Assembly (NCBI RefSeq): GCF_001643775.1
Contig: NZ_CP011402.1
Location: forward strand, 1,364,432 to 1,396,431
Reading direction: 5' to 3'
DNA: 32,000 nucleotides
From: Denitrobacterium detoxificans
GTDB lineage: Bacteria > Actinomycetota > Coriobacteriia > Coriobacteriales > Eggerthellaceae
The translations under genes and the position numbers were made by a program. Each line of letters begins with the position of its first letter. The stretch's first letter is position 1. The notes below the pieces were generated by a model. It saw nothing but the letters and a program-made list of their open reading frames with translations, was not told where the DNA came from and did not search any database. Positions 2,714-14,581 of the stretch are shown in pieces.

Positions 2714-3109
2714 TCCTATCCTTCCCGAGGAGGACGCAACCACAGTAGCTGGAGGCCCTTCCCCGCAGACACGGGCTATGTTGTGTTTTGAGGTAATTAT
2801 ACGCGCTCGATTGAAAACGGGGCAGCTGGGGCAATGCCTGTCACCCTACGGACACAAGCGCGTTCGGCGCGTATAGGCGCTAAAAATGGCATTTGGGCAA
2901 AAATAGCCCGCCCGATGTAAAAAATTCAACGCTGTACAGGTAAATCGGCTACGAGCGGCAACGTAAATGACTTCACGAAATAACTGACCTGGGGAAACAC
3001 AGGATCAGAACTATAGAAACGATCGAAATATTGGGCTCTTCGGTGGTTTCTGTGGGAGAGATTCCGGCATAGGCCCAGCTCAGCGGGCGAAAACAACGAT
3101 CTGGAACTG

Positions 3110-3133
3110 AAACGGCCCCGGGAGGGGCCGTTT
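3110..3133. terminator. Hairpin AAACGGCCCC-GGGA-GGGGCCGTTT inside the IS, upstream of the transposase
   Basis: Perfect 10-bp stem; probably shields the transposase from external read-through. Confidence 0.55.
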
Positions 3134-3191
3134 CCGCGTCATCCGCCTATGATTGCTAAGCCAAATTCAGACAACCGAAGAGGTGTGACGC

Positions 3192-4565
3192 ATGAAGAGT
3201 CTACTACTTCTCGCCCTCGGTCTGGCCCGCACGGTCGTCCTGGGCGCGCGCATCGAGGCCGAGCGCATCGTCGTGAGCGTCCGGCCCTACAAGCGCGAGC
3301 AGCGCCGCTGCCCCGTATGCGGCAGGGCCTGCGACTTCTACGACATGGCGAACCGCGGGGCCCCCAGGCTGTGGAGGGCGATGGACCTGGCGCGCTCGGC
3401 CTGCTACCTGGAGTACGCGCCCTGCAGGGTGCGCTGCCCGGAGCACGGCGTGCGCACCGAGGCCGTCCCCTGGGCGCGGCACGGGGCGCGCTTCACGCGT
3501 GACTTCGAGGACTGGGTGGCGTGGCTGGCGGTCCGCTGCACCGCCTCGGCGGTCTCCGAGCTCGCCCGCGTCGAGTGGCACAGCGTGGGCGGCGTGTGCA
3601 GGCGCGTCTACGCCGAGCTGGAGGCCGCGCGCGGCGCCTCGAGGTTCGACGGCGTGCGCCGCATCGGCATCGACGAGACGTCGTACAAGAAGGGCCACAA
3701 GTACGTCACGGTGGTCGTCGACCACGACCGCGGCTGCCTCATCTGGGCGCACGAGGGCACCGGCAAGGACGTGCTCAACCTGTTCCTCGACGAGCTCACG
3801 CGCGAGCAGAGGCGCGCCATAGAGGTGGTGACCGCCGACGGCGCGAGGTGGATAAGGCAGCTGGTCAAGCGCCGCTGCCCCAACGCGAGGTGGGTCATGG
3901 ACCCCTTCCACGTGGTCCAGTGGATGAACGACGCGCTCGACGCCGTGCGCTGCGAGGAGTGGAACGCCGCCAGGGCCGCCGCCAGGGCCGCCAGGCCCAG
4001 GCCCGAGGGCAAGCGCGGCAGGCCTGCCAAAGGCGAGCTGCCGCCCGAGGAGGTCAGGGCGCTCGAGGAGGAGGCGGCCTCCATCAAGGGCAGCCGCTAC
4101 GCGCTCGTGAAGAACCCCGAGGACCTCACCGACGGCCAGAGGGCGAGGCTCGAGGCGCTCAAGAAGAGGGCCGGCTCGCGGCTGGTCAGGGCCTGGGAGC
4201 TCAAGGAGGACCTGCGGGCCGTCTTCCGGGCAGCCGACGGCTCCGAGGCCGCCGAGCTGCTCGACGACTGGATGCACAGGGCCGCCTACTGCAAGATCGC
4301 CAAGGTCGTCGCCGTGGAGAAGAAGGTGCGCCGCCGGCGCGACGACATCATCGCCGCAGTCGAGCTCGGCATCAGCAACGGGCGCGTAGAGGCCATCAAC
4401 AACAAGATCAAGGTGACGGTGAGGATGGGCTACGGCTTCCGCAACACCGACAACCTCGTGGCCCTGCTCATGCTCAGGTGCGGCGACTGCCAGCCCCAGC
4501 TCCCGGGTCGCCCGGTGAAGGCGAGGAAGAAGGGCGTGAAGGGAGCGAAGAGCGTTGCTGCCTAG
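3192..4565 (+). CDS. ISL3-family transposase
   Basis: 457 aa; N-terminal Zn finger CPVCGRACDFYD, GIDETSYKKGHKYVTVVVDHD, VTADGARW...VMDPFHVVQWMNDALD, C-terminal ISNGRVEAINNKIKVTVRMGYGFRN. Confidence 0.96.
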   Translation: MKSLLLLALGLARTVVLGARIEAERIVVSVRPYKREQRRCPVCGRACDFYDMANRGAPRLWRAMDLARSACYLEYAPCRVRCPEHGVRTEAVPWARHGARFTRDFEDWVAWLAVRCTASAVSELARVEWHSVGGVCRRVYAELEAARGASRFDGVRRIGIDETSYKKGHKYVTVVVDHDRGCLIWAHEGTGKDVLNLFLDELTREQRRAIEVVTADGARWIRQLVKRRCPNARWVMDPFHVVQWMNDALDAVRCEEWNAARAAARAARPRPEGKRGRPAKGELPPEEVRALEEEAASIKGSRYALVKNPEDLTDGQRARLEALKKRAGSRLVRAWELKEDLRAVFRAADGSEAAELLDDWMHRAAYCKIAKVVAVEKKVRRRRDDIIAAVELGISNGRVEAINNKIKVTVRMGYGFRNTDNLVALLMLRCGDCQPQLPGRPVKARKKGVKGAKSVAA

Positions 4566-4754
4566 GCTAGCCCCTTGTCACACAAACTACCGAAGCCTCA
4601 AATATTGCTTCGATAGCAGCCGCAACCTGTACAGCATTGATTATTTGCATATGATCGTCCGGTTTTCGCCCAATGACCCCAATATGACACAAATCACAGT
4701 TCCTCATCAGTGCACGGCAAGTCATGTCCACATTGCTGCGGGCCCTGTCGTGAG

Positions 4755-4843
4755 TCAAATTTGGCACCTACGTGCCGCCCCAAGGGCTTTTTAGGCTTAG
4801 CCGTTATTTTGACTCGTAGTGTTGTCCTGACTGGTAATCAAAC
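4755..4843 (-). ncRNA. tracrRNA-like RNA (type II CRISPR), orphan
   Basis: Minus-strand sequence GTTTGATTACCAGTCAGGACAACACTAC-GAGT-CAAAAT-AAC-GGCTAAGCC-TAAAAA-GCCCTTGGGGC-GGCACGTAGGTGCC. Upper stem pairs 25/28 positions with the 36-nt repeat (GTG variant, GU allowed), then a GA/GAGU bulge and a GUUUUG/CAAAAU lower stem, a nexus hairpin (4794..4802) and hairpins at 4777..4787 and 4763..4776. 3' end approximate (no clean U-run). Confidence 0.72.
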
Positions 4844-4863
4844 GGAAGTGGAGGCGTGAGCGC

Positions 4864-5103
4864 ATGCTGACGTATTCGAAAATAGCAACCATGGGTCATA
4901 CTGCGCTTTTCGAGTATTATCCCGAGGGCGATACCTCAAAACCAGGTGTTGTATCCTTCGATTTCGATAGCGGGGAATGCGAAATCACTTGCTTAGCGGA
5001 TGGCGACCGTCATTCGCGATACGCCAACCATCTCGCTAATGCCTTAGAAAGCCAGCATGCTGGCGATGGGGTCGTTCCGTCGGGTACGATAATGTGGTAT
5101 TAA
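4864..5103 (+). CDS. Hypothetical small protein (79 aa)
   Basis: GGAGG at 4850..4854 is 9 nt upstream of the ATG; MLTYSKIATMGHTALFEYYPEGDTSKPGVVSFDFDSGECEITC... Confidence 0.55.
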   Translation: MLTYSKIATMGHTALFEYYPEGDTSKPGVVSFDFDSGECEITCLADGDRHSRYANHLANALESQHAGDGVVPSGTIMWY

Positions 5104-5152
5104 AATTTTTCGAACAGGCTATGAGCCGCCTATGGGCGGCCGGAATGGCCAT

Positions 5153-5225
5153 TGGCACGCCACTGAAGAGTCGAACCCGATACGCGGCTTTGGAGGCCGA
5201 CGCTCTTCCATTGAGCTAGTGGCGT
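5153..5225 (-). tRNA. tRNA-Trp(CCA)-like gene, possibly degenerate
   Basis: ACGCCAC TA GCTC AATGGAA GAGC G TCGGC CTCCAAA GCCGC GTA TCGGG TTCGACT CTTCA GTGGCGT G CCA. Perfect 7-bp acceptor stem, 4-bp D-stem, loop CTCCAAA (anticodon CCA) and encoded CCA end, but poor T-stem (G-C, two G-U, C.C, U-A) and 3-nt variable loop. Confidence 0.6.
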
Positions 5226-5322
5226 ATGGTATAAAGATTGCGAAGGGTTCCCCCTCGGTCTTGGACGGAGGCTGGAACCCTTTCTCTGTTCTCGCTTTAT
5301 TCGACGTATCACCCCATCCTCG

Positions 5323-5358
5323 GTTTTGGAGCAGCGTCATTCTGACTGGTAATCAAAC
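5323..5358 (+). repeat. Type II CRISPR-like direct repeat R1 (36 nt)
   Basis: GTTTTGGAGCAGCGTCATTCTGACTGGTAATCAAAC. Confidence 0.93.
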
Positions 5359-5388
5359 GTTATGCGCGTATTTGATATACTACGCATG

Positions 5389-5426
5389 GAAGCCCCCACG
5401 ATTTACAACTGAGTCGCCGGGGCTTC
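5389..5426. terminator. Hairpin GAAGCCCC...GGGGCTTC in block 1
   Basis: 8-bp perfect stem next to the stop codon of the minus-strand ORF; plus strand followed by TTCATTTTC. Confidence 0.5.
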
Positions 5427-5427
5427 T

Positions 5428-5670
5428 TCATTTTCTGATCACGTCAATCAAGTTTCCACTCTTATCAAGAATGGTCACCCAATCGAACTCCGCCGCATAC
5501 TCTTCGTTTTTGATCAGACCACGAATGGCTGCGCACAAGTCGGAATCGGTTATATGCAGAGACTCGTAGTTGTCGATCACGAGCCTCTTCATTCCTTTCT
5601 TGCCGATGGACTTATCAAAGTAATTCTTGACGGCACCATGAGCGTTTCGCGACGTAAGCAGCGTTTTCAT
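5428..5670 (-). CDS. Hypothetical small protein in block 1 (80 aa)
   Basis: MKTLLTSRNAHGAVKNYFDKSIGKKGMKRLVIDNYESLHITDSDLCAAIRG...; frame stays open upstream through repeat R2 (ORF 5428..5754), so it may be a 5'-truncated gene. Confidence 0.45.
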   Translation of the reverse strand: MKTLLTSRNAHGAVKNYFDKSIGKKGMKRLVIDNYESLHITDSDLCAAIRGLIKNEEYAAEFDWVTILDKSGNLIDVIRK

Positions 5671-5720
5671 CTCAATACCATTCAGCAATCGGCCGTCTTG
5701 TCCCAAATTACGCGACCATC

Positions 5721-5756
5721 GTTTTGGAGCAGCGTCATTCTGACTGGTAATCAAAC
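5721..5756 (+). repeat. Type II CRISPR-like direct repeat R2 (36 nt)
   Basis: GTTTTGGAGCAGCGTCATTCTGACTGGTAATCAAAC, identical to R1 and R3. Confidence 0.93.
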
Positions 5757-5772
5757 AGATTCGGGAAAGAAA

Positions 5773-5819
5773 AAGCCAGTTAGGTGAACCCTCAACTTAA
5801 GCGGGCCGCTAACTGGCTT
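5773..5819 (-). terminator. Inverted repeat AAGCCAGTTAG...CTAACTGGCTT, probable minus-strand terminator
   Basis: Perfect 11-bp stem, 25-nt loop; minus strand continues TTTTTCTTT. Confidence 0.55.
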
Positions 5820-5882
5820 GCCAAAAATATAACATTTTGAGCAATCGAATGAAAGCTTTGCATTCTTCTTATGGAGGGCAAG

Positions 5883-6108
5883 ATGAAGGTTCCTAACCGC
5901 GTCAACATCCTGGGCATCCCGTATGATGTCGTCTCTGACGATATGGAGACAATGAGGATGGCTTTATCTCTCCTCGTAGGCAAGTCATCATGTTGCGCAA
6001 GGGGCTGCCCCGCGAGAAGCGCGAGCAGACGTATCTGCACGAGCTGGTTCATGGCATCTTGGATCAGCTTGACTACTTGGAGCTGTACGAGGACGAGCAC
6101 CTGGTGCA
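5883..6108 (+). pseudogene. Fragment of phage-type ImmA/IrrE-like zinc peptidase, frameshifted and truncated by repeat R3
   Basis: MKVPNRVNILGIPYDVV... in one frame, then NEDGFISPRRQVIMLRKGLPREKREQTYLHELVHGILDQLDYLELYEDEHLVQ in another; HELVH motif; coding similarity ends exactly where R3 begins (6109). Confidence 0.65.
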
Positions 6109-6144
6109 GTTTTGGAGCAGCGTCATTCTGACTGGTAATCAAAC
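6109..6144 (+). repeat. Type II CRISPR-like direct repeat R3 (36 nt)
   Basis: GTTTTGGAGCAGCGTCATTCTGACTGGTAATCAAAC. Confidence 0.93.
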
Positions 6145-6398
6145 CGCGCCATCGCGCAGCCATACCCCTGGCGCGCGTGGTAGTCCACCTCGTGCCCGCA
6201 TCGGTCGAGCCGCCATAGGCTCTCGGACGTGGCACGCTATATGCGCCCATCGAACGTGGGCACCTCGATGAAAATGCGCATAATCACCTTCTAATCTAAT
6301 GTAAGTGGCGCTATAATGATTTAGGCGGTACTTGCCCGGTCATGGACGGGGTGTAGGCCGCTATCTTTTTACTCTAAGCATGCCCCTCTGCTTATCAG

Positions 6399-6434
6399 GT
6401 TTTGGAGCAGTGTCATTCTGACTGGTAATCAAAC
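6399..6434 (+). repeat. Type II CRISPR-like direct repeat R4 (36 nt)
   Basis: GTTTTGGAGCAGTGTCATTCTGACTGGTAATCAAAC (one substitution vs R1-R3). Confidence 0.93.
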
Positions 6435-6495
6435 ATGAGAATGCGCATGTTGCTCCCTTAGGCATGAAAAAGCGCCTATGAAGTCGCTAAATTGC

Positions 6496-6523
6496 TTGAT
6501 ACATAAACTCTGTTTGATATAAT
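6496..6523 (+). promoter_or_regulatory. Sigma70-like promoter
   Basis: TTGATA-N16-TATAAT; predicted start at about 6530, the first base of a hairpin. Confidence 0.5.
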
Positions 6524-6529
6524 TTATTC

Positions 6530-6563
6530 GAAGCCCGACGCGGCAACGCAGCGTCAGGGCTTC
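6530..6563. terminator. Hairpin GAAGCCC-G-ACGC...GCGT-CA-GGGCTTC, T-rich downstream on plus strand
   Basis: 7-bp plus 4-bp stems; followed by ATTTGTTTTCCC on plus strand. Confidence 0.5.
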
Positions 6564-6854
6564 ATTTGTTTTCCCATCTTGTAACGCTGCCGTCCTTTAA
6601 GGCAAAAAGGATTTCTTGAACATTCGAGTAATCAGACTCAGGATCACTCAACGATTCCTCAAAGTGTTTCAAGAATCGCTTGTCATTCATAGCGCTATCA
6701 AGATTGCTCAGAACAATCCTTAATCTGCTTTCCGCCTTTCGAAACTTTGTATCTGCTTTTGCTATATTGCCAGCAACCGCCAAATAGCCATTTCCATCAG
6801 GGCATTTTGCTTCCCAGAGTACACCGACAGCTCCTATAGCATAATCAAACTTCG
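6562..6854 (-). pseudogene. Gene fragment in block 4, 5' end apparently truncated at repeat R5
   Basis: Open frame KFDYAIGAVGVLWEAKCPDGNGYLAVAGNIAKADTKFRKAESRLRIVLSNLDSAMNDKRFLKHFEESLSDPESDYSNVQEILFALKDGSVTRWENK*; the only ATG upstream of the coding-like part lies inside the repeat. Confidence 0.4.
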
Positions 6855-6890
6855 GTTTTGGAGCAGTGTCATTCTGACTGCTAATCAAAT
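6855..6890 (+). repeat. Type II CRISPR-like direct repeat R5 (36 nt), degenerate 3' end
   Basis: GTTTTGGAGCAGTGTCATTCTGACTGCTAATCAAAT. Confidence 0.9.
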
Positions 6891-6949
6891 ACCCTCCTCG
6901 ACCTTACATACGCACTTCCCTACGGAAAGACCCTGGGCGCTGAAGCCCG

Positions 6950-7483
6950 TCATGTGGGGCGATATGGCCTAACGCCAAAGTCAACCTCGATGATGCGCCC
7001 GCAATATCTGGGCTTGGCGGGAGCAGGAATCGGACCGGGCTCGCGCTGCCCCATCTCGGCAGCCTTCGGAGCAATCACCGTCTGGAACCAGCCGCAACAT
7101 CCGCAGTGCCACACTGCCCCATCCCACGTAAGTTCCAACGGCCTAAGCTCGAGGCGGTGCCCACATCTGGGACACATGTGCGGCTGTCTCGATATCGCCT
7201 TGAAATAGGGGCTCAGCTCCAGCATACGCCCACCTCCCACTCGTTTGATTGTCAGCCAAAATGACTCCGTTGAATACAAATGGCCCGAATCGTCAATATC
7301 GAAAGCCGCCCTTACTTCTGCATCTTCAGAAGGTCCTTCAGGATCATTAACGGAGTCGCAAGAATAAGCAGAATCGCATACCCTGCAAAGGAAGGGTCGC
7401 CCGACCCACCAAAAAAGACATTCCCTTTGCCAAGCCTTCGTTTGCGTGAACGATTCAAACCAAAAGATGGTCGTTATGAGCAT
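6950..7483 (-). CDS. Hypothetical protein with zinc-ribbon-like CPRCG...CGCC
   Basis: Up to 177 aa; HMCPRCGHRLELRPLELTWDGAVWHCGCCGWF; start uncertain. Confidence 0.45.
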   Translation of the reverse strand: MLITTIFWFESFTQTKAWQRECLFWWVGRPFLCRVCDSAYSCDSVNDPEGPSEDAEVRAAFDIDDSGHLYSTESFWLTIKRVGGGRMLELSPYFKAISRQPHMCPRCGHRLELRPLELTWDGAVWHCGCCGWFQTVIAPKAAEMGQREPGPIPAPAKPRYCGRIIEVDFGVRPYRPT

Positions 7484-7836
7484 CGTAGCCCAGACAACTC
7501 ATTCACGCGTCCATCATGTAGGACACGCAAACAGCCAAATGCAAATACACTTTTCATCAGGAAGGATGCAATTTCAAACGAAGGGCAATGGCCCTAGCAC
7601 TGCCGCGCAACGAGGAACGGGAGGGAAACGATAATGGCAATATTCGCACTACTTACTGCGCCAGCAATGATCATCTCGGTGTTTGCGTTATGCGCCTAGC
7701 AGAACTCATGGGTCGAGCCAACCAACCCAGGAAGCAAACCCCACGTCAATAGCGTATTGACACCTCAACCATCGCATTATATTCTAATCATGTGTTTTTT
7801 GCGTTTATTTGGGGTACAAGGAAGGTAGGTAGCGAA

Positions 7837-8280
7837 ATGGAACGCAGTGGAAGTCAGAAGGTGTTGTTGGTACTGTCCATCATCGAGATTATAGGCGCCG
7901 CGTTGTCCCTTATTACGGGCATCCTGTTCTTCGTAGGTGCAGGCGCGGTGCTATCCGATGCAAGCGTCGTCGCGGGAACAGGCGCCACTCAGGGCCAAGC
8001 AGCCGGTATTTTCGTAATCCTATCGTGTATTCTCATTGTCGAGGGTATCTGGAGCCTCCTGTGCGGCATCTTCGGCGTTCGCGCCGCCAACGATAACCAG
8101 AAGATCATGATCGTTTGGGTCTTCTGCCTCATTGGCGTGATCATGGCAATCATTGGCATCATCGCAGCCATCGTAAACGGCCAGTTCGGCAGCCAAGTTT
8201 GGTCGCTCGTTTGCTCGCTGGCAGTCTCGGGCATCATGTTCTTCATCGCCAACAACATCAAGAAGGAAGCCGGCAAGTAA
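7837..8280 (+). CDS. Hypothetical multi-pass (about 4 TM) membrane protein
   Basis: MERSGSQKVLLVLSIIEIIGAALSLITGILFFVGAG..., strongly hydrophobic segments. Confidence 0.75.
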   Translation: MERSGSQKVLLVLSIIEIIGAALSLITGILFFVGAGAVLSDASVVAGTGATQGQAAGIFVILSCILIVEGIWSLLCGIFGVRAANDNQKIMIVWVFCLIGVIMAIIGIIAAIVNGQFGSQVWSLVCSLAVSGIMFFIANNIKKEAGK

Positions 8281-8398
8281 GACTAACCACTTACACAGGC
8301 ATCATCCAGCACCCTGCCTTCGTCGAATCCGACAGCCAGAAGGGAGGGTGCTGGTTTTTATCACCCACACTAGGGCAAACAAGTCGAAAGGATGACCC

Positions 8399-9079
8399 AT
8401 GAATTACGAGATCGTTGGAGAACCGTATCCGGCAGTCGTATGCCATCTGCAGCGCGGAGAGCAAATGAAAACTGAAAAGGGCTCCATGGTGTGGATGGAC
8501 CCCGTCATGAAGATGGAAACCAACACCGGGGGTGGAGGAATCGGCAAGATGTTCGGACGCATGCTATCAGGTGAGAGCATGTTCCAAAACGTCTACACGG
8601 CGGAAAGCGACGGTATGATCGCGTTCGGATCGAGCTTCCCCGGCCAGATCCTTCCCATCGAGATTCAACCTGGTCAGGATTTCATCGCGCAGAAGATGGC
8701 GTTTCTGGCATCCGAGATGGGCGTAACGCTCGACACGTTCTTCAACCAGAAGCTCAGTGGCGGCTTCTTCGGCGGCGAAGGCTTCATCATGCAGCGCCTG
8801 AGCGGCCAGGGCATGGTATTCCTCGAGTGCGACGGATCGCTCGTTCGCTACGAGCTTGCCGCCGGCCAATCCATGGTAGTCGACACGGGCAACGTACTCG
8901 GATTCACGGGCGGCGTAAATCTACGCGTAGAGAGAATTCAAGGCGCAAAGAACGTCATGTTCGGCGGCGAAGGCCTCTTCAACACGGTGCTCACCGGCCC
9001 GGGCACGGTCTACCTGCAAACGATGCCGCTCGCCAACCTCGTCGACGTGATTGCGGCCCATATGCCTAAGACAGACTAA
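8399..9079 (+). CDS. AIM24/TIGR00266-like family protein
   Basis: 226 aa; MNYEIVGEPYPAVVCHLQRGEQMKTEKGSMVWMD...LTGPGTVYLQTMPLANL pattern of this family. Confidence 0.8.
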   Translation: MNYEIVGEPYPAVVCHLQRGEQMKTEKGSMVWMDPVMKMETNTGGGGIGKMFGRMLSGESMFQNVYTAESDGMIAFGSSFPGQILPIEIQPGQDFIAQKMAFLASEMGVTLDTFFNQKLSGGFFGGEGFIMQRLSGQGMVFLECDGSLVRYELAAGQSMVVDTGNVLGFTGGVNLRVERIQGAKNVMFGGEGLFNTVLTGPGTVYLQTMPLANLVDVIAAHMPKTD

Positions 9080-9153
9080 ATCGAAGCGCTCTGAACAAGC
9101 GTAGACAAGCATTATCACGCAACGCGAGCACGAAACTCGCCCAAACAAGCAGG

Positions 9154-9196
9154 GCCAGCTAGCAACCAAGCATCGTAAGGGGTTCGGCTAGCTGGC
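9154..9196. terminator. Bidirectional terminator GCCAGCTAGC...GCTAGCTGGC
   Basis: Perfect 10-bp arms between convergent genes. Confidence 0.6.
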
Positions 9197-9210
9197 TTTG
9201 TTCTGCCCGC

Positions 9211-10041
9211 CTATACATTACCCAATAGGACCGTATGCAAGTGACGCTCGGCTACGCTGGCCAGCTCATGCAGCGTAGCGATGGGCGTAGGAGGCACATC
9301 ACTCATACGGTGCTGCGGGAAGAAACGCGTAAGATGGTACGGGATGGCGGGGTCGAGCGATGCAAGCCACTGCGCCATTTCCTCTATCTGTTCTGCATCA
9401 TCGGAAAGCCCAGGCACTACGAGCGTAGTTACCTCCAGATGGCACGTAGGCAATGCGGCCAGCAACTCAATCGTACGCTTCACCGTACCCAAATCGCCAC
9501 TGAGCTTGCGGTAACCCTCCGCAGTAAAGCATTTCAAGTCGATGTTGGCAGCATCCACGAAGGGGGCAATCTGCTCCACCACCTGCTCGCTCGCGAACCC
9601 ATTGGAAACGAGTACGTTCACCAATCCCGCTTCGTGCGCCAACGCGGCCGTATCGCGCAGGAACTCCCACGTCACAAGCGGCTCGTTATACGTGTACGCA
9701 ACACCAACGCACCCGCGATCGCGCAGGCCGCACGCAGCGTGCACAACCTCTTCGGGCGTTACCTCGCGCCAAGGCACCCCAGTCGCATCCACTTGCGCAA
9801 TCGAGGCGTTCTGGCAAAACGGGCAATGCATGTTGCAGCCGTAGCTGCCCAGGGAAAGCACGGTACTCCCCTGTTTCCAGTGGGCAATCGGCTTCTTCTC
9901 GATAGGGTCGAGCGCCAGCGACGTAATGCGCCCGTACCCTTCGGGCGCCACCACGCCATCGATGCAGCGACGAGAACGACATGCCCCCAGCGCACCCTCG
10001 GCAAGGGAACACGCATGGGGGCATGTCGAGCATATTGTCAC
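9211..10041 (-). CDS. amrS: AmmeMemoRadiSam-system radical SAM protein
   Basis: 276 aa; SLGSYGCNMHCPFCQNASIAQ (CxxxCxxC cluster variant of this family), EPLVTWEF, TTLVVPGLSDD. Confidence 0.85.
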   Translation of the reverse strand: MTICSTCPHACSLAEGALGACRSRRCIDGVVAPEGYGRITSLALDPIEKKPIAHWKQGSTVLSLGSYGCNMHCPFCQNASIAQVDATGVPWREVTPEEVVHAACGLRDRGCVGVAYTYNEPLVTWEFLRDTAALAHEAGLVNVLVSNGFASEQVVEQIAPFVDAANIDLKCFTAEGYRKLSGDLGTVKRTIELLAALPTCHLEVTTLVVPGLSDDAEQIEEMAQWLASLDPAIPYHLTRFFPQHRMSDVPPTPIATLHELASVAERHLHTVLLGNV

Positions 10042-10047
10042 GGCTAG

Positions 10048-11727
10048 TTAGTCACGCGTGAGCTTACGATGCAGGCGATGCGGCTTGGCGGCTTCGGGCC
10101 CCAAGCGACGAACACGGTCTTCCTGGTAGCCTTCGAAGTTGCCCTCGTACCAGTACCATGCACCCGGATTCTCGTCGGTACCTTCCCAAGCCAGAATATG
10201 CGTGGCAACACGGTCGAGGAAGAAGCGGTCGTGGCTGGTGATGACAGCGCAGCCGCTGAACTCGTTCAGCGCCTCTTCCAGGCTGGAAAGCGATTCGGTG
10301 TCCAGGTCGTTCGTGGGCTCGTCGAGCAGCAGCAGGTTGCCGCCCTGCTTCAAGGTAAGAGCCAGGTTCAAGCGGTTGCGCTCGCCACCGGAAAGCACGC
10401 CTGCGGGCTTCTGCTGGTCGCTGCCCTTGAAGCCATACGCCGCCACATATGCGCGCGAAGGCACCTCGGTGCCAGCTACGTTCATGTAGTCCAGACCATC
10501 CGACACGACTTCCCAGACCTTCTTATTGGGATCGATGCCGGCACGGTTCTGATCGACATAGGAAAGCTGAACGGTAGAGCCCAGCTCGAGCGTGCCGCTC
10601 GTGGGAGCCTCCTCGCCCACGATCATGCGGAAGAGCGTCGTCTTGCCCACGCCATTCGGGCCGATGACGCCCACGATGCCATTGCGCGGCAGGCTGAACG
10701 ACAGGTCATCGATGAGCACGCGGTCGCCGAATTCCTTGTGCAGATGCTCGGCTTCCAGCACCTTGTTGCCCAAGCGCGGACCAGCAGGAATGTGAATCTC
10801 GGTGAAGTCGACATTCTTGCGCGCAGCGGATTCGGCCACCATCTTCTCGTAGGCCGCCAAACGCGCCTTGCCCTTGGCCTGACGGGCCTTCGCGCCACTG
10901 CGCACCCATTCCAGCTCGGCCTTCATCTTCTTGGCGCGCTTCTTGTCCTGTGCACCCTCGAGCTCCAAACGCGCAGCCTTGGTTTCCAGATACGTGGAGT
11001 AATTGCCCTTGTAGGGATACAGCGTGCCGCGGTCGACCTCGCAAATCCACTCGGCTACATGGTCGAGGAAGTAACGGTCGTGCGTGACGGCCAAGACGGC
11101 ACCGGGATACTTCGCCAGGAACTGTTCGAGCCACAGAACCGATTCGGCATCCAGGTGGTTGGTGGGTTCGTCGAGCAGAAGCAGGTCGGGAGATTCCAGC
11201 AGCAAGCGGCACAGGGCCACGCGACGACGCTCGCCACCCGAAAGCACCTTCACAGGAGCGTCGGGGTCGGGGCACTGCAGCGCATCCATAGCCTGCGAAA
11301 GCTGCGAATCCAGATCCCAACCATTAACGGCATCGATGGCGTCCTGAAGCTTGCCCATTTCCGCCATGAGCGCATCGAAATCGGCATCGGGCATGGCCAT
11401 TTCCGCCGAAATCTCGTTGAAGCGCGCCACATTGGCAAGCGTTTCGGCAAAGGCCTGCTCGACGTTCTCGCGAACTGTCTTGTCATCATCGAGCGCGGGA
11501 TCCTGCTGAAGCAGACCCACGGTGTAGCCAGGCGTAAGGCGTGCCTCGCCGTTGCTGACCTCTTCCAGGCCCGCCATGATCTTCAGCAGCGTGGACTTGC
11601 CCATGCCGTTCGGACCAACGACGCCAATCTTCGCGCCAGGATAGAACGCAAGCGTAACGTCGTCCAAGATGACCTTGTCGCCATGCGCCTTGCGCGCCTT
11701 TTCCAGCGTGTAAATGAATTCAGCCAC
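10048..11727 (-). CDS. ettA: ABC-F type ATPase, EttA-like
   Basis: 559 aa from GTG with GGAGG RBS; duplicated ABC domains with GPNGMGKSTLLK and GPNGVGKTTLFR, LSGGERRRVALCRLLL, LSGGERNRLNLALTLK. ORF track extends it artefactually to 12519. Confidence 0.9.
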   Translation of the reverse strand: MAEFIYTLEKARKAHGDKVILDDVTLAFYPGAKIGVVGPNGMGKSTLLKIMAGLEEVSNGEARLTPGYTVGLLQQDPALDDDKTVRENVEQAFAETLANVARFNEISAEMAMPDADFDALMAEMGKLQDAIDAVNGWDLDSQLSQAMDALQCPDPDAPVKVLSGGERRRVALCRLLLESPDLLLLDEPTNHLDAESVLWLEQFLAKYPGAVLAVTHDRYFLDHVAEWICEVDRGTLYPYKGNYSTYLETKAARLELEGAQDKKRAKKMKAELEWVRSGAKARQAKGKARLAAYEKMVAESAARKNVDFTEIHIPAGPRLGNKVLEAEHLHKEFGDRVLIDDLSFSLPRNGIVGVIGPNGVGKTTLFRMIVGEEAPTSGTLELGSTVQLSYVDQNRAGIDPNKKVWEVVSDGLDYMNVAGTEVPSRAYVAAYGFKGSDQQKPAGVLSGGERNRLNLALTLKQGGNLLLLDEPTNDLDTESLSSLEEALNEFSGCAVITSHDRFFLDRVATHILAWEGTDENPGAWYWYEGNFEGYQEDRVRRLGPEAAKPHRLHRKLTRD

Positions 11728-11814
11728 GAAAACCTCCGTGCTAATAGAGCGGTATTGCGTTAATTTGTTTATTGTACAAGACGAATGTCGAATTCGCTTG
11801 AAACGGAGGCGCTT

Positions 11815-13236
11815 ATGTCGATCGTTGGAGCAATTGTCGTACCGCATCCGCCACTTATCGTTCCCGCCGTTGGGCGCGGCGAGGAGCAACGCATCGGCGA
11901 AACCATTGACGCATATAAGCGCGCAACAAAATGGCTGCTCAGCCAGCAGCCCGATTGCCTGGTTATCACCTCGCCGCACGCGCCGCTGTTTCGCGACGCG
12001 TTTCACGTAACCACCGATGACGTCCTCGAGGGAAGCATGGCCCAATTCCGCGCGCCGCAAGAGCACATGAGCGCGGAATGCAATACCGAACTGGCGCGAG
12101 AAATCATCAGCAGGGCAAACGATGCAGGAATCCCAGCCATTGGCAGCGAGCGCTATCGCGACGACATGGATCACGCCACCTACGTGCCGCTCTACTTCGT
12201 GCGCGAAGCCGCCGGCGGCATGCTTCCCTGCCCCATCGTTCGCATTGGGCTTTCCGGCATGCCGTACGACACGCACCGCCAATTGGGGCGCATCATCGCA
12301 CAAGCGGCAAGCGCGCAGGGCATCAAAGTAGGATTCATTGCCAGCGGAGACCTTTCGCACAAGCTGAAACCCGACGGTCCCTATGGTTTCGCACTCGAAG
12401 GCCCTGTATTCGACGAGCGCATTGGCGAGATATTCGCATCGGGTAACCTCGATGGCCTCTTCGAGCTCGACGAGGCATTCTGCGAAGCTGCCGCCGAATG
12501 CGGACTCCGATCGTTCCAAATCATGGCGGGCGCCCTAGACGGCCTGAGCGTGCATACGGAATTGCTCTCGAACGAAGGGCCGTTTGGCGTAGGCTACGGA
12601 GTAGCCATCTGCAAATGCGAAAGCACGACAAATTGCGACGCCCATGCAGGTAAACGCGATGCGGACAACGACCACCTTCACAGTGCCAATCCGCCCACCG
12701 AGGCCGACCCAATCGTACGCCTTGCGCGCCTAACGGTCGAAACGTTCACGCGCACGGGCCGCGCGCCCAATCTACCTGACGATCTGCCGCAAGAGCTCCT
12801 GGAACGGAAGGCGGGCGTATTCGTAACGATTCACAAGCGGGGCGCTTTACGCGGCTGCATAGGCACCATCTCACCCACATGCAGCAACATTGCGGAGGAA
12901 GTCATACAGAACGGGATTAGCTCCAGCAGTCGTGACCCACGCTTCCCAGCCATACGCGAGGAGGAACTCGATTACCTGGAGTATTCGGTCGACGTATTGG
13001 GCGAAGCAGAGCCCATCGACTCGCCCGAACAGCTTGACCCGAAGCGCTACGGCGTCATCGTTGCGAAACGTTGGCAACGCGGGCTACTGCTCCCGAACCT
13101 CGAGGGCGTAGAGACGATTGAGTCTCAGGTCTCGATCGCCAAGCAAAAAGCGGGCATAGACCCAGCAGACAACGACGTTGAACTTGCGCGCTTCGAAGTC
13201 GTGCGCCATTCCGCCGGCGGAGAGGCACGCAGATAA
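11815..13236 (+). CDS. Fused MEMO1-like plus AMMECR1-domain protein (AmmeMemoRadiSam system)
   Basis: N-term IVGAIVVPHPPLIVPAVGRGEE (MEMO-like); C-term GVFVTIHKRGALRGCIGTISPT...SRDPRFP (AMMECR1); GGAGGC RBS upstream. Confidence 0.88.
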   Translation: MSIVGAIVVPHPPLIVPAVGRGEEQRIGETIDAYKRATKWLLSQQPDCLVITSPHAPLFRDAFHVTTDDVLEGSMAQFRAPQEHMSAECNTELAREIISRANDAGIPAIGSERYRDDMDHATYVPLYFVREAAGGMLPCPIVRIGLSGMPYDTHRQLGRIIAQAASAQGIKVGFIASGDLSHKLKPDGPYGFALEGPVFDERIGEIFASGNLDGLFELDEAFCEAAAECGLRSFQIMAGALDGLSVHTELLSNEGPFGVGYGVAICKCESTTNCDAHAGKRDADNDHLHSANPPTEADPIVRLARLTVETFTRTGRAPNLPDDLPQELLERKAGVFVTIHKRGALRGCIGTISPTCSNIAEEVIQNGISSSSRDPRFPAIREEELDYLEYSVDVLGEAEPIDSPEQLDPKRYGVIVAKRWQRGLLLPNLEGVETIESQVSIAKQKAGIDPADNDVELARFEVVRHSAGGEARR

Positions 13237-13450
13237 TTCGACGCACCAGACATCATCGCCGAACGCATCCACGCGCAACACACGTACGTCCACTACCACG
13301 CACCGTTCGCGGGTTGAAAGGCTAACGAGCGAAACGAAACGCTACCAATCGAGCCCAACGAGAAGCTATAATCCAGCACTAGAGAGGCGCGGAACGGACG
13401 CGCGCAATGCCCGGAGGCGCAAGCCTTCGAAAACGAGGGAGGCGGTCGCA

Positions 13451-13648
13451 ATGTGCTTTAGGCCATCACCTGTATCCAGCTCAAACGACAACATCAACCA
13501 GGGAACATGCCCTACATGCGGAATGCCCGTCGCCGCAGAAGCGGGCACCACAAGCGGAACGTGCCCCTATTGCGGAGAACCCATTCCCCCCAATGATTCC
13601 GGCCAGGGCGGAATTTCCGATGATCCGAAGAACGTGCGCATCTTGTAG
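13451..13648 (+). CDS. Small double-CxxC zinc-ribbon-like protein (65 aa)
   Basis: MCFRPSPVSSSNDNINQGTCPTCGMPVAAEAGTTSGTCPYCGEPIPPNDSG... Confidence 0.6.
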   Translation: MCFRPSPVSSSNDNINQGTCPTCGMPVAAEAGTTSGTCPYCGEPIPPNDSGQGGISDDPKNVRIL

Positions 13649-13723
13649 CCGTTCGACACGCAGCGAAAGGGCAGCCAGGGACGATGAACTGCGCCCCAAA
13701 ACTTGGACGCGATAAATAAGAAC

Positions 13724-14581
13724 CTAGGCGGCTTGGGACTGGCTCCGGAACTCCTCCGGGGTCAGTCCCTTTAGTTTAACTTGCCTCCTCTGCGTGTTCC
13801 AGTACTCGATGTATCCCTCAAGCTCCCTCTTGAACGTCTCGAAGTCGGGGAACTTTCTGCCTCGGAAGAACTCGTCTTTCAAATGGCCGAACACCTGCTC
13901 GGTCGCGCCGTTGTCGATGCAGTTGCCCTTACGTGACATGCTCTGCACGATGCCTGCCTCCTCGAGCCTTCCGCAATACCCTATGTGCTGGTACTGCCAG
14001 CCCATGTCCGACTGCATGACCGGGTGAGCACCGTCCGGAATCTTCGGGATGAGCATGTCGAGCATCTCCTTCTGCTGCGACATGTCCGGGTGCTGGGATA
14101 TGGACCACGCCGCGATCTCCTTGCTGCCGAAGTCGTAGACGGGCGCGAAGTACGCCTTGCCCCATTCCTGCTTGAACTCGGTGACGTCGGTGCCAAGCTT
14201 CTGCCACGGCCCATCTGCCTCGAAGTCGCGCCCCAGCACGTTCTCGAAGGTCTTGCCGACCACGCCCTTGTAGGAATTGTACTTGTGGTAGTCCGTCTCC
14301 CGGCGTATGCCGCAGCTTATTCCTATCTCGTGCATCATCTTGAGCACGGTCTTGTCGGCGATCGTCGCCCCTTCCTCGGCGCGCAGGCACATGGCTATCT
14401 GGCGATGGCCGCAGCCGTTTGGCGAGCGCGAGAAGATCTCGATCGCCTTGCCCCAAAGCTCCGGCCTGGTCGGCGCCTTGGCCGGCTTCGACTTGTTGTA
14501 GTGGTAAGTCGATGCTGGAACGCCCGACACGGCCAGTAGGTCCGCAAGCGCGTGCCCCTGCCCCGAAAGCTCCCTGATCAC
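13724..14581 (-). CDS. IS3-family transposase OrfB (integrase catalytic domain)
   Basis: 285 aa; KLGTDVTEFKQEWGKAYFAPVYDFGSKEIAAW, NGATEQVFGHLKDE, YIEYWNTQRRQVKLKGLTPEEFRSQS (DDE core). Confidence 0.95.
   Translation of the reverse strand: MIRELSGQGHALADLLAVSGVPASTYHYNKSKPAKAPTRPELWGKAIEIFSRSPNGCGHRQIAMCLRAEEGATIADKTVLKMMHEIGISCGIRRETDYHKYNSYKGVVGKTFENVLGRDFEADGPWQKLGTDVTEFKQEWGKAYFAPVYDFGSKEIAAWSISQHPDMSQQKEMLDMLIPKIPDGAHPVMQSDMGWQYQHIGYCGRLEEAGIVQSMSRKGNCIDNGATEQVFGHLKDEFFRGRKFPDFETFKRELEGYIEYWNTQRRQVKLKGLTPEEFRSQSQAA

Follow-up and report, generated by a model that had tools for sequence, protein, structure and literature searches.

Within 32 kb of the Denitrobacterium detoxificans chromosome (the window), a minus-strand RNA element lies beside a plus-strand CRISPR array. 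This element (4843 to 4755, GUUUGAUUACCAGUCAGGACAACACUACGAGUCAAAAUAACGGCUAAGCCUAAAAAGCCCUUGGGGCGGCACGUAGGUGCCAAAUUUGA) is a genuine homologue of the type II-A trans-activating CRISPR RNA (tracrRNA) by sequence and structure. No cas gene accompanies it. Very probably, it is a stranded tracrRNA that was left as the scar of a cas-operon deletion and is no longer functional. The sequence-only reading of this DNA had described a tracrRNA-like gene antisense to the array with the geometry of the Streptococcus pyogenes tracrRNA, and all of its parts were found where they had been placed. That reading had left three fates open: action with a distant Cas9, a relic, or a new function. Our analysis favours the relic. 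A distant Cas9 is unlikely in view of the absent promoter, terminator and leader, and a new function is disfavoured.

The element is a true member of the tracrRNA family because it matches a covariance model of its relatives and its hairpins covary. The model, built from 7 relatives with the window excluded, matches positions 4843-4717 (-) with 85.4 bits (E 4e-15, model positions 1-130), the alignment being poor over model positions 100-130, the terminator part. The same model gives 81.4 bits for the sister strain and 26-36 bits for plain antisense CRISPR repeats. In an alignment of 13 homologues, 95.7% of the cells pair across four helices, and 9 pairs change on both sides. These values were reached in 0 of 500 shuffles, and slid partners pair in 30-46%. 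When the models of Rfam release 15 (4227 models) were run over 4560-7100, no tracrRNA match was obtained at the gathering score or at E <= 10, and only a tRNA was reported. Any curated Rfam tracrRNA model evidently falls short of the Coriobacteriia lineage. The proposed check by covariance models gave no match with Rfam and a clear one with the model made from relatives.

The anti-repeat pairs with the consensus repeat at 24 of 28 upper-stem positions (23 Watson-Crick pairs, one G-U pair and 4 mismatches). The figure of 25 of 28 given earlier is correct for two of the five repeats, the copies with T at repeat position 13 (6399 and 6855), but not for the consensus. The predicted repeat:anti-repeat duplex has an energy of -35.6 kcal/mol compared with -12.5 ± 3.1 in 1000 dinucleotide shuffles (z = -7.5); it lies far below the shuffled controls, as anticipated, although an energy of that order is expected from any degenerate repeat copy read antisense. 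A mere sixth, degenerate repeat followed by hairpins that arose by chance is hardly credible. On the plus strand, the element does show 69% identity to the repeat when aligned in register. However, past the repeat-like part a further 53 nt match the tracrRNA model from other genomes, and this candidate is refuted by the 85 bits, against 26-36 for antisense repeats, and by the covarying hairpins. The earlier wording, an anti-repeat and not a sixth repeat, is half right: only 4816-4826 are tracrRNA-specific, and 4827-4843 (CTGACTGGTAATCAAAC on the plus strand) are the 3' end of the CRISPR repeat, so the element is both.

The family also shares an element after the last hairpin. In all 13 homologues, its sequence UUUGACUY is the complement of RAGUCAAA in the strand that holds the bulge and the lower stem. 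In this helix (helix 1 of the alignment), 91% of the cells are paired, and pair 29-101 occurs as GC in 7, GU in 4 and AU in 2. This pairing would compete with pairing to the CRISPR RNA (crRNA). We know of no pairing element of the UUUGACUY type in the S. pyogenes tracrRNA.

The relatives were collected with the 3' end of the repeat, which was used to scan one genome per species and gave 82 loci, mostly Coriobacteriia type II-A arrays. tracrRNA homologues were then retrieved by pattern and covariance-model searches; blastn-short with the tracrRNA gave just 3 relatives, and a regular expression and later the covariance model performed better. Intact loci have the order tracrRNA (minus strand), divergent promoter region, cas9-cas1-cas2-csn2, conserved leader and array. 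The tracrRNA lies divergently upstream of cas9 in L004, L022, L049, L055, L096, L124, L127 and L128, and cas1, cas2, csn2 and then the array follow in those loci that reach far enough. In the relatives, cas9 is within 40-100 nt of the tracrRNA, with the divergent promoter region of 40-60 nt in between. Together with L129, these loci form the cas9-linked set (n = 9). The cas-less set (n = 7) comprises the window, L018, L030, L061, L082, L126 and the second D. detoxificans strain, L086, which is about 96% identical to the window.

The two sets differ in spacing, promoter and anti-repeat. The distance from the anti-repeat to the first repeat is 6074-6127 nt in 6 of the 9 cas9-linked loci, where the array is visible. 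In the window it is 479 nt, without a cas gene. A tblastn search of the 32 kb with Cas9, Cas1, Cas2 and Csn2 of a relative gave nothing better than E 0.19, which bears out the earlier statement that no cas9 is present here. In the cas-less loci, the next repeat is 29-2236 nt away, or there is none. An extended -10 box, TGnTAnnnT (TGCTACACT, TGTTAGAAT, TGATAGAAT and similar), occurs at most 25 nt upstream of the anti-repeat in all nine cas9-linked loci and is absent from all seven cas-less loci, the window included. A promoter scan found no minus-strand promoter-like site upstream of 4843, and a terminator scan found no terminator-like site downstream of the window tracrRNA. All 7 other-species homologues of alignment A1 have a terminator hairpin and a U-run, which the window and L086 lack; homologues fetched later have a GC hairpin followed by a T-rich run. 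A conserved leader ending in GCAGTGGGGAATTTGCNCCAAYG abuts the first repeat in the 18 compared arrays in which the leader end is visible, and this leader was found upstream of no window repeat.

The distal 17 nt of the anti-repeat are the most telling. They are identical to the cognate repeat at 11-13 of 17 positions in each of the nine cas9-linked loci, where they end in TATCAAGAT, TAATCGGAA or TATCAGAAC. In the window all 17 are repeat-identical, and in the 6 other cas-less loci 16-17 are, with the ending CTGACTGGTAATCAAAC. Because the distal end is identical to the repeat only in cas-less loci, the anti-repeat is a chimera of tracrRNA and repeat. This scar of the repeat type is found in at least 5 of the lineages surveyed, and twice within one species.

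We infer a recombination mechanism from these features. In intact loci, the strand of the array carries, about 6.1 kb upstream of the first repeat, a degenerate copy of the repeat in direct orientation, namely the anti-repeat. Recombination would have occurred across short identical blocks common to anti-repeat and repeat (GCAGTG and CTGACTGGTA), probably by short-homology recombination or single-strand annealing. Such a deletion would take the tracrRNA promoter and the four cas genes, together with the leader and the spacers closest to it. A hybrid site would remain, with tracrRNA on one side and repeat on the other, followed by the next spacer. The deletion may have been selected because of autoimmunity or because it is of benefit to admit mobile elements. 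If the deletion took this route, the locus, with its otherwise ordinary type II-A tracrRNA, would be a clean natural example of a Cas9 locus lost in one step: the tracrRNA anti-repeat supplies the array with a ready-made direct repeat, and cas9, cas1, cas2, csn2 and the leader are removed when the two recombine.

The junctions fall into two classes. In class 1 (the window, L061 and L082), the tracrRNA-type interior (GTGTTGTCC or GTGACGTCC) is kept, and the crossover would lie in the CTGACTGGTA block. In class 2 (L086, L018 and L030), the interior is that of the locus's own repeat, and the crossover would lie further 5', near GCAGTG. The window and L086 belong to different junction classes and have different first spacers. 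Their states cannot be derived from one another; therefore, at least two deletion events would have occurred within D. detoxificans.

The collapse of arrays through recombination between CRISPR repeats is documented (PMC12477760). In both processes, short direct repeats of a CRISPR locus recombine and the intervening block is deleted. The window differs in that one partner would be the tracrRNA anti-repeat, and in that the block lost is the cas operon with the leader and not a set of spacers. A non-exhaustive, targeted full-text literature search yielded no account of cas loss through recombination between tracrRNA anti-repeat and repeat.

Other loci may represent further stages of decay. A metagenome-assembled genome (MAG) of a sister lineage, L080, keeps only the terminal repeat (3004-3039), beside the same downstream genes. 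Another Eggerthellaceae species (L082, L125 and L126) keeps a solo tracrRNA with a repeat-type distal end and an intact terminator; no array or cas gene is in view there. The possibility that cas9 contigs of 6.1-6.6 kb are excised circles was considered and rejected, as their ends do not overlap and break in the tracrRNA and at the first repeat. The coordinates of the features in the window are listed in Table 1.

Table 1. Parts of the tracrRNA element, the array and the neighbouring insertion sequence in the window
Feature	Position	Strand	Remarks
Anti-repeat upper stem	4816-4843	-	Chimera of tracrRNA and repeat; putative recombination junction
GAGU bulge	4812-4815	-	Columns invariant in alignments A1 and A3
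CAAAAU lower-stem strand	4806-4811	-	6 bp with GUUUUG of the repeat 5' end; columns invariant in A1 and A3
Nexus hairpin GGC-UAA-GCC (GGCUAAGCC)	4794-4802	-	97% of cells paired in 13 homologues
Hairpin 2, GCCC-UUG-GGGC (GCCCUUGGGGC)	4777-4787	-	4 of 7 helix pairs changed on both sides among homologues
Hairpin 3, GGCAC-GUAG-GUGCC (GGCACGUAGGUGCC)	4763-4776	-	4 of 5 pairs changed on both sides; 100% of cells paired
Conserved 3' element UUUGACUC	4752-4759	-	Complementary to GAGUCAAA of the bulge/lower-stem region (4808-4815)
Terminator position of relatives	4717-4751	-	Here a GGGCCC remnant alone, without hairpin or U-tract
Leaderless array	5323-6890	+	Five 36-nt repeats GTTTTGGAGCAGCGTCATTCTGACTGGTAATCAAAC at 5323, 5721, 6109, 6399 and 6855
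Segment S0	4844-5322	+	479 bp from hybrid site to first repeat; stands where promoter, cas9-cas1-cas2-csn2 and leader sit canonically
Segment S1	5359-5720	+	362 bp
Segment S2	5757-6108	+	352 bp; truncated, frameshifted phage gene
Segment S3	6145-6398	+	254 bp
Segment S4	6435-6854	+	420 bp; C-terminal part of phage VG15 protein
ISL3-family insertion sequence	3034-4599	+	457-aa transposase, complete; 8-bp target duplication AAATATTG at 3026-3033 and 4600-4607

A tracrRNA next to an array could also be the native layout, as in some type II-C loci; the cas genes would then have disappeared from the opposite side, for instance with the arrival of the ISL3 insertion sequence (IS). Several loci do have the tracrRNA beside the array, and the ISL3 element, which lies between ybeY and the tracrRNA, is only 153 nt beyond the tracrRNA 3' element. 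We consider this layout very improbable. The IS is strain-specific: L086 lacks it yet has the same cas-less fusion of tracrRNA and array, and ISL3 insertion as the cause of cas loss was rejected on this ground. In L086, ybeY lies about 310 bp past the point of the window's IS (about 460 bp from the tracrRNA 3' element) with no cas remnant between. Moreover, cas9 stands between tracrRNA and array in all cas9-linked family members, a distal end identical to the repeat and the lack of a -10 box are confined to cas-less loci, and the array has no leader. A partial hint of synteny with intact loci is seen in L128, in which an ABC-F gene adjoins the tracrRNA.

Selection on the pairing was assessed by comparison with L127. 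Among the cas9-linked relatives found, this locus is the closest, and its Cas9 shares 90% identity with the Hugonella massiliensis protein. A single base separates the anti-repeat interiors of L127 and the window, and the L127 stem contains one interior mismatch besides one G-U pair. The window pair has 2-3 mismatches beyond those of L127 (C·A, A·C), with 0 compensated. Between the two D. detoxificans strains, the 89-nt tracrRNA shows 8 differences (91% identity), compared with 94% over the next 155 nt and 96-97% in the flanking genes. In L086, the family-conserved GUAG loop has become GUAU, and hairpin 3 contains a G·U pair. The earlier suggestion that compensated pairing reflects selection is contradicted by these uncompensated mismatches and by the drift between strains. 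The tracrRNA is most likely inert because it lacks a promoter, a terminator and a Cas9 partner and is drifting; here, too, we infer the loss of function from the sequence record. A well-paired orphan tracrRNA, then, need not be under selection. The scar, a distal anti-repeat turned into repeat sequence together with promoter loss, would be diagnostic, and it offers a simple sequence test in genome scans for separating tracrRNA fossils from working or repurposed tracrRNA-like RNAs.

A tracrRNA that still functions with a Cas9 encoded elsewhere, guided by crRNAs from this array, is improbable. The CRISPR2 locus of Enterococcus faecalis would be the precedent, which reportedly has normal 30-nt spacers and can work with the Cas9 and tracrRNA of CRISPR1 in trans. 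The scaffold in the window is structurally intact, its duplex with the repeat still reaches -35.6 kcal/mol, and the locus is retained in several strains. On the other hand, the tracrRNA is without its native promoter and terminator, the array is without a leader or promoter, and 'spacers' of 254-479 nt would give processed crRNA guides of the wrong length. The uncompensated mismatches and the drift between strains also argue against it. No Denitrobacterium Cas9 was found among the 120 best matches each for the L022 Cas9 and the Hugonella-type L127 Cas9. These matches include named Hugonella, Slackia, Eggerthella, Arabiibacter, Raoultibacter and Adlercreutzia proteins, and other D. detoxificans proteins are named in the database. 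In the L127 Cas9 search, identity drops to 60% after the fourth match, and a Denitrobacterium orthologue should therefore have been listed. E. faecalis CRISPR2 (PMC5491264) is, like the window array, a chromosomal repeat array without adjacent cas genes. The window differs from it in that the remnant includes the tracrRNA, the array is leaderless and the spacers are hundreds of bp long.

Several points weigh against an inert scar. The evidence for the absence of Cas9 is indirect, from protein-database searches, and the ancestral state is deduced from L127, no intact D. detoxificans locus being available. The nexus and hairpin stems of the window are perfect and its GUAG loop is family-typical, which means that decay is slight or the deletion recent. 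At least two strains, with a divergence of about 4%, keep the fusion of tracrRNA and array, and the repeats remain close to perfect. Finally, minus-strand genes in the long spacers may provide read-through transcription.

Repurposing is about as improbable as the native layout. In this case the element would be a decoy or regulatory RNA, like phage RNA anti-CRISPRs, which are solitary repeats, or viral single guide RNAs (sgRNAs), or an antisense partner of transcripts from the repeat region. Anti-CRISPR tracrRNA-like elements far from cas9 have been described (10.64898/2026.06.01.729453), and the region is low in GC and contains phage-derived DNA. According to the same source, these RNAs are compact, carried by prophages and provided with a terminator; they contain a fold-back guide and repeat and have anti-CRISPR (acr) genes as neighbours. 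The window element resembles them in being derived from tracrRNA and located away from any cas9, but none of the prophage, terminator, fold-back and acr-neighbour features is seen in the window. Its site is chromosomal, between ybeY and housekeeping genes, and no fold-back repeat-like segment or guide lies 5' of the anti-repeat. It has no terminator, no neighbours like Acr or anti-CRISPR-associated (Aca) proteins were detected, and the adjacent small open reading frames (ORFs) gave no domain matches. A decoy would have no target if the genome is without Cas9. In addition, the junction type arose independently in several lineages, each with different downstream DNA.

The S. pyogenes type II-A tracrRNA, reportedly described by Deltcheva in 2011 and by Jinek in 2012, is the closest well-known model. 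Like it, the window element is antisense to the array and has an anti-repeat, a bulge of 4 nt and a lower stem of 6 bp (GUUUUR:YAAAAU) that ends in G·U. It also shares a nexus of the AAUAA(C/G)GCUA type and a terminal GGCAC...GUGCC hairpin, and the tracrRNA of its relatives lies divergently upstream of cas9-cas1-cas2-csn2, as in S. pyogenes. Unlike the S. pyogenes locus, the window has no cas9, promoter, terminator or leader, and its distal anti-repeat is replaced by repeat sequence. The tracrRNA family of the window has the extra 3' UUUGACUY element, and no Rfam family detects the window RNA. The S. pyogenes type II-A tracrRNA is summarised in 10.1101/2020.10.09.333658.

The array itself is unusual. 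The repeat at 6399 has 1 mismatch and that at 6855 has 3. The five repeats are 290-456 bp apart, and not about 66 bp. With segments of 254-479 bp, S0 included, and no leader, the array does not have the canonical form of spacers of about 30 nt behind a leader. Such long segments are found across Coriobacteriia. In 28 fetched loci (the window and 27 others, among them L018, L025, L064, L072, L076 and L084), 68 segments of 137-2047 bp lie between full 36-nt repeats. They are interspersed with normal spacers of 29-31 nt, often near the trailer end, and are found also where the cas operon is intact (L072 of Lancefieldella rimae, and L025). Among their contents are truncated genes of phages and mobile elements, and just 6 of the 68 include a partial or degenerate repeat copy internally.

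The origin of several segments can be followed to phage genes. S2 contains a terminator, a promoter and codons 1-76 of an 89-codon gene, with a frameshift. Full-length homologues of this gene lie directly downstream of the VG15 minor-head gene in siphophage contigs of 35.7 kb. S4 encodes the C-terminal ~90 residues of a VG15 protein of 404 aa, with the cut at the repeat border; its ORF had no match among phage records and viral contigs. In three other genomes, a long segment begins inside a VG15 or Mu F gene and is truncated at the border. Five long spacers from four genomes (S2 and S4 of the window, L076 no. 2, L078 no. 5 and L072 no. 6) come from a single part of the phage genome, either the minor-head gene (VG15/Mu F) or its immediate downstream neighbour. 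This suggests that long spacers have a source hot spot beside the portal gene.

These segments of 0.14-2 kb might be untrimmed phage fragments that were integrated by the Cas9-Cas1-Cas2-Csn2 adaptation machinery as 'giant spacers', an idea that we put forward only tentatively and regard as doubtful. It is suggested because a full duplicated repeat at both borders is the signature of Cas1-Cas2 integration, because long segments occur beside intact cas operons and consist of truncated phage DNA, and because GGG stands at the 3' border in both cases with a related source phage, at the position of an NGG-type protospacer adjacent motif (PAM). If it is true, the orphan tracrRNA would be the last trace of such a system. 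The arrays with long segments may matter more than the tracrRNA itself. If the adaptation machinery made the long segments, Cas1-Cas2 would tolerate very long inserts, which bears on adaptation mechanisms and on DNA-recording tools.

The border sequences come from two related sources. Past the 3' border of S2 (6108), the related source L131 reads GGGTCTCGCGAT at 8228-8239 (+). Past the 3' border of L003 long spacer 1, the related source L001 reads GGGACTCGCGAT at 7742-7731 (-). The two are identical at 11 of 12 positions. The genes that contain them are unrelated, their reading frames differ, and neither sequence is found a second time in its locus. The resulting motif, GGG(W)CTCGCGAT (GGGWCTCGCGAT), starts with GGG and contains the palindrome TCGCGA; it rests on two data points. 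Weaker source proxies gave GGATGG and CAAGCA at the 3' borders. At the 5' borders of the VG15-type long spacers, for which the proxies are distant, no motif was seen. Two spacer scans of viral contigs and a literature search gave no PAM for this Cas9 clade.

Further comparisons among spacers were obtained. A spacer of Adlercreutzia shanghongiae (L081 no. 9, 30 nt) matches L006 at 2145-2174, inside a long spacer of an Enterorhabdus MAG, with 90% identity. This match, the sole one in a local spacer-versus-locus search, fits the idea that the mobile elements targeted by short spacers also supplied the DNA of the long ones. Long spacers 4 and 15 of L018 share a 165-nt stretch, which closes one of them and, as its reverse complement (96% identity), opens the other. 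The two fragments thus have a common end point in their source and were inserted in opposite orientations. A homologue of this 165-nt stretch also abuts a repeat in L054. The L086 array contains four long segments that are not in the window and lacks S0 and S3; one of its inter-repeat segments (5171-6170), of 1000 bp, carries a complete GrpB-family gene (188 aa).

Temperate phages can use this repeat differently. On the viral contigs L001 (13364-14625) and L002 (459-1300), a tyrosine integrase gene is followed by ATGACTGGTAATCAAAC (TGACTGGTAATCAAAC), the 3' end of the repeat, a spacer and a full repeat. The combination of integrase, repeat 3' end and spacer-repeat unit indicates that a temperate phage uses this repeat as its bacterial attachment site (attB). 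This phage is the Coriobacteriia counterpart of ΦAP1.1, a prophage in the type II-A repeats of S. pyogenes (10.1101/2020.10.09.333658). A scan of viral contigs with the 16-nt core of the attachment site (att) gave 26 contigs, approximately the estimated chance level, and only L001 and L002 are relevant. Integration of the ΦAP1.1 type does not explain the window, in which there is no integrase and the long segments are flanked by full repeats and not by core-only att sites. Decay of prophages through core-only att sites was rejected as a general source of long segments, since a core-like internal partial repeat was found in 3 of the 68. IS insertion as a source gave one clear case only, L036.

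The locus is chromosomal (recO-era-ybeY ... AIM24), and its order is kept between strains. On the left are recO, era and ybeY (197-2743), followed by the ISL3 element, the tracrRNA element and the repeats. GC content drops from ~0.60 to 0.46-0.55 over 4500-8000. Contig FOEC01000023.1 (GCA_900110565.1) is 100% identical to the window over 4270-13992, and an exact-protein look-up of YbeY led to one short contig. S0 contains a 79-aa ORF (4864-5103) and is present in L087 and L095, the latter sequence covering the locus only from 4814 onward, but not in L086. A tRNA-Trp (CCA) in S0 (5153-5225, -) scores 38 bits against the Rfam tRNA model, and its best DNA matches are mycobacteriophage tRNA-Trp genes with 77-79% identity. 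For the S1 ORF, an exact look-up found the 86-aa version in the same genome only, and the 80-aa version is not on record. Directly after the terminal repeat lies a 177-aa ORF (6950-7483, -) with zinc-ribbon-like CxxC motifs; it has no Pfam match and is partly kept in L080 (74% over 53 aa).

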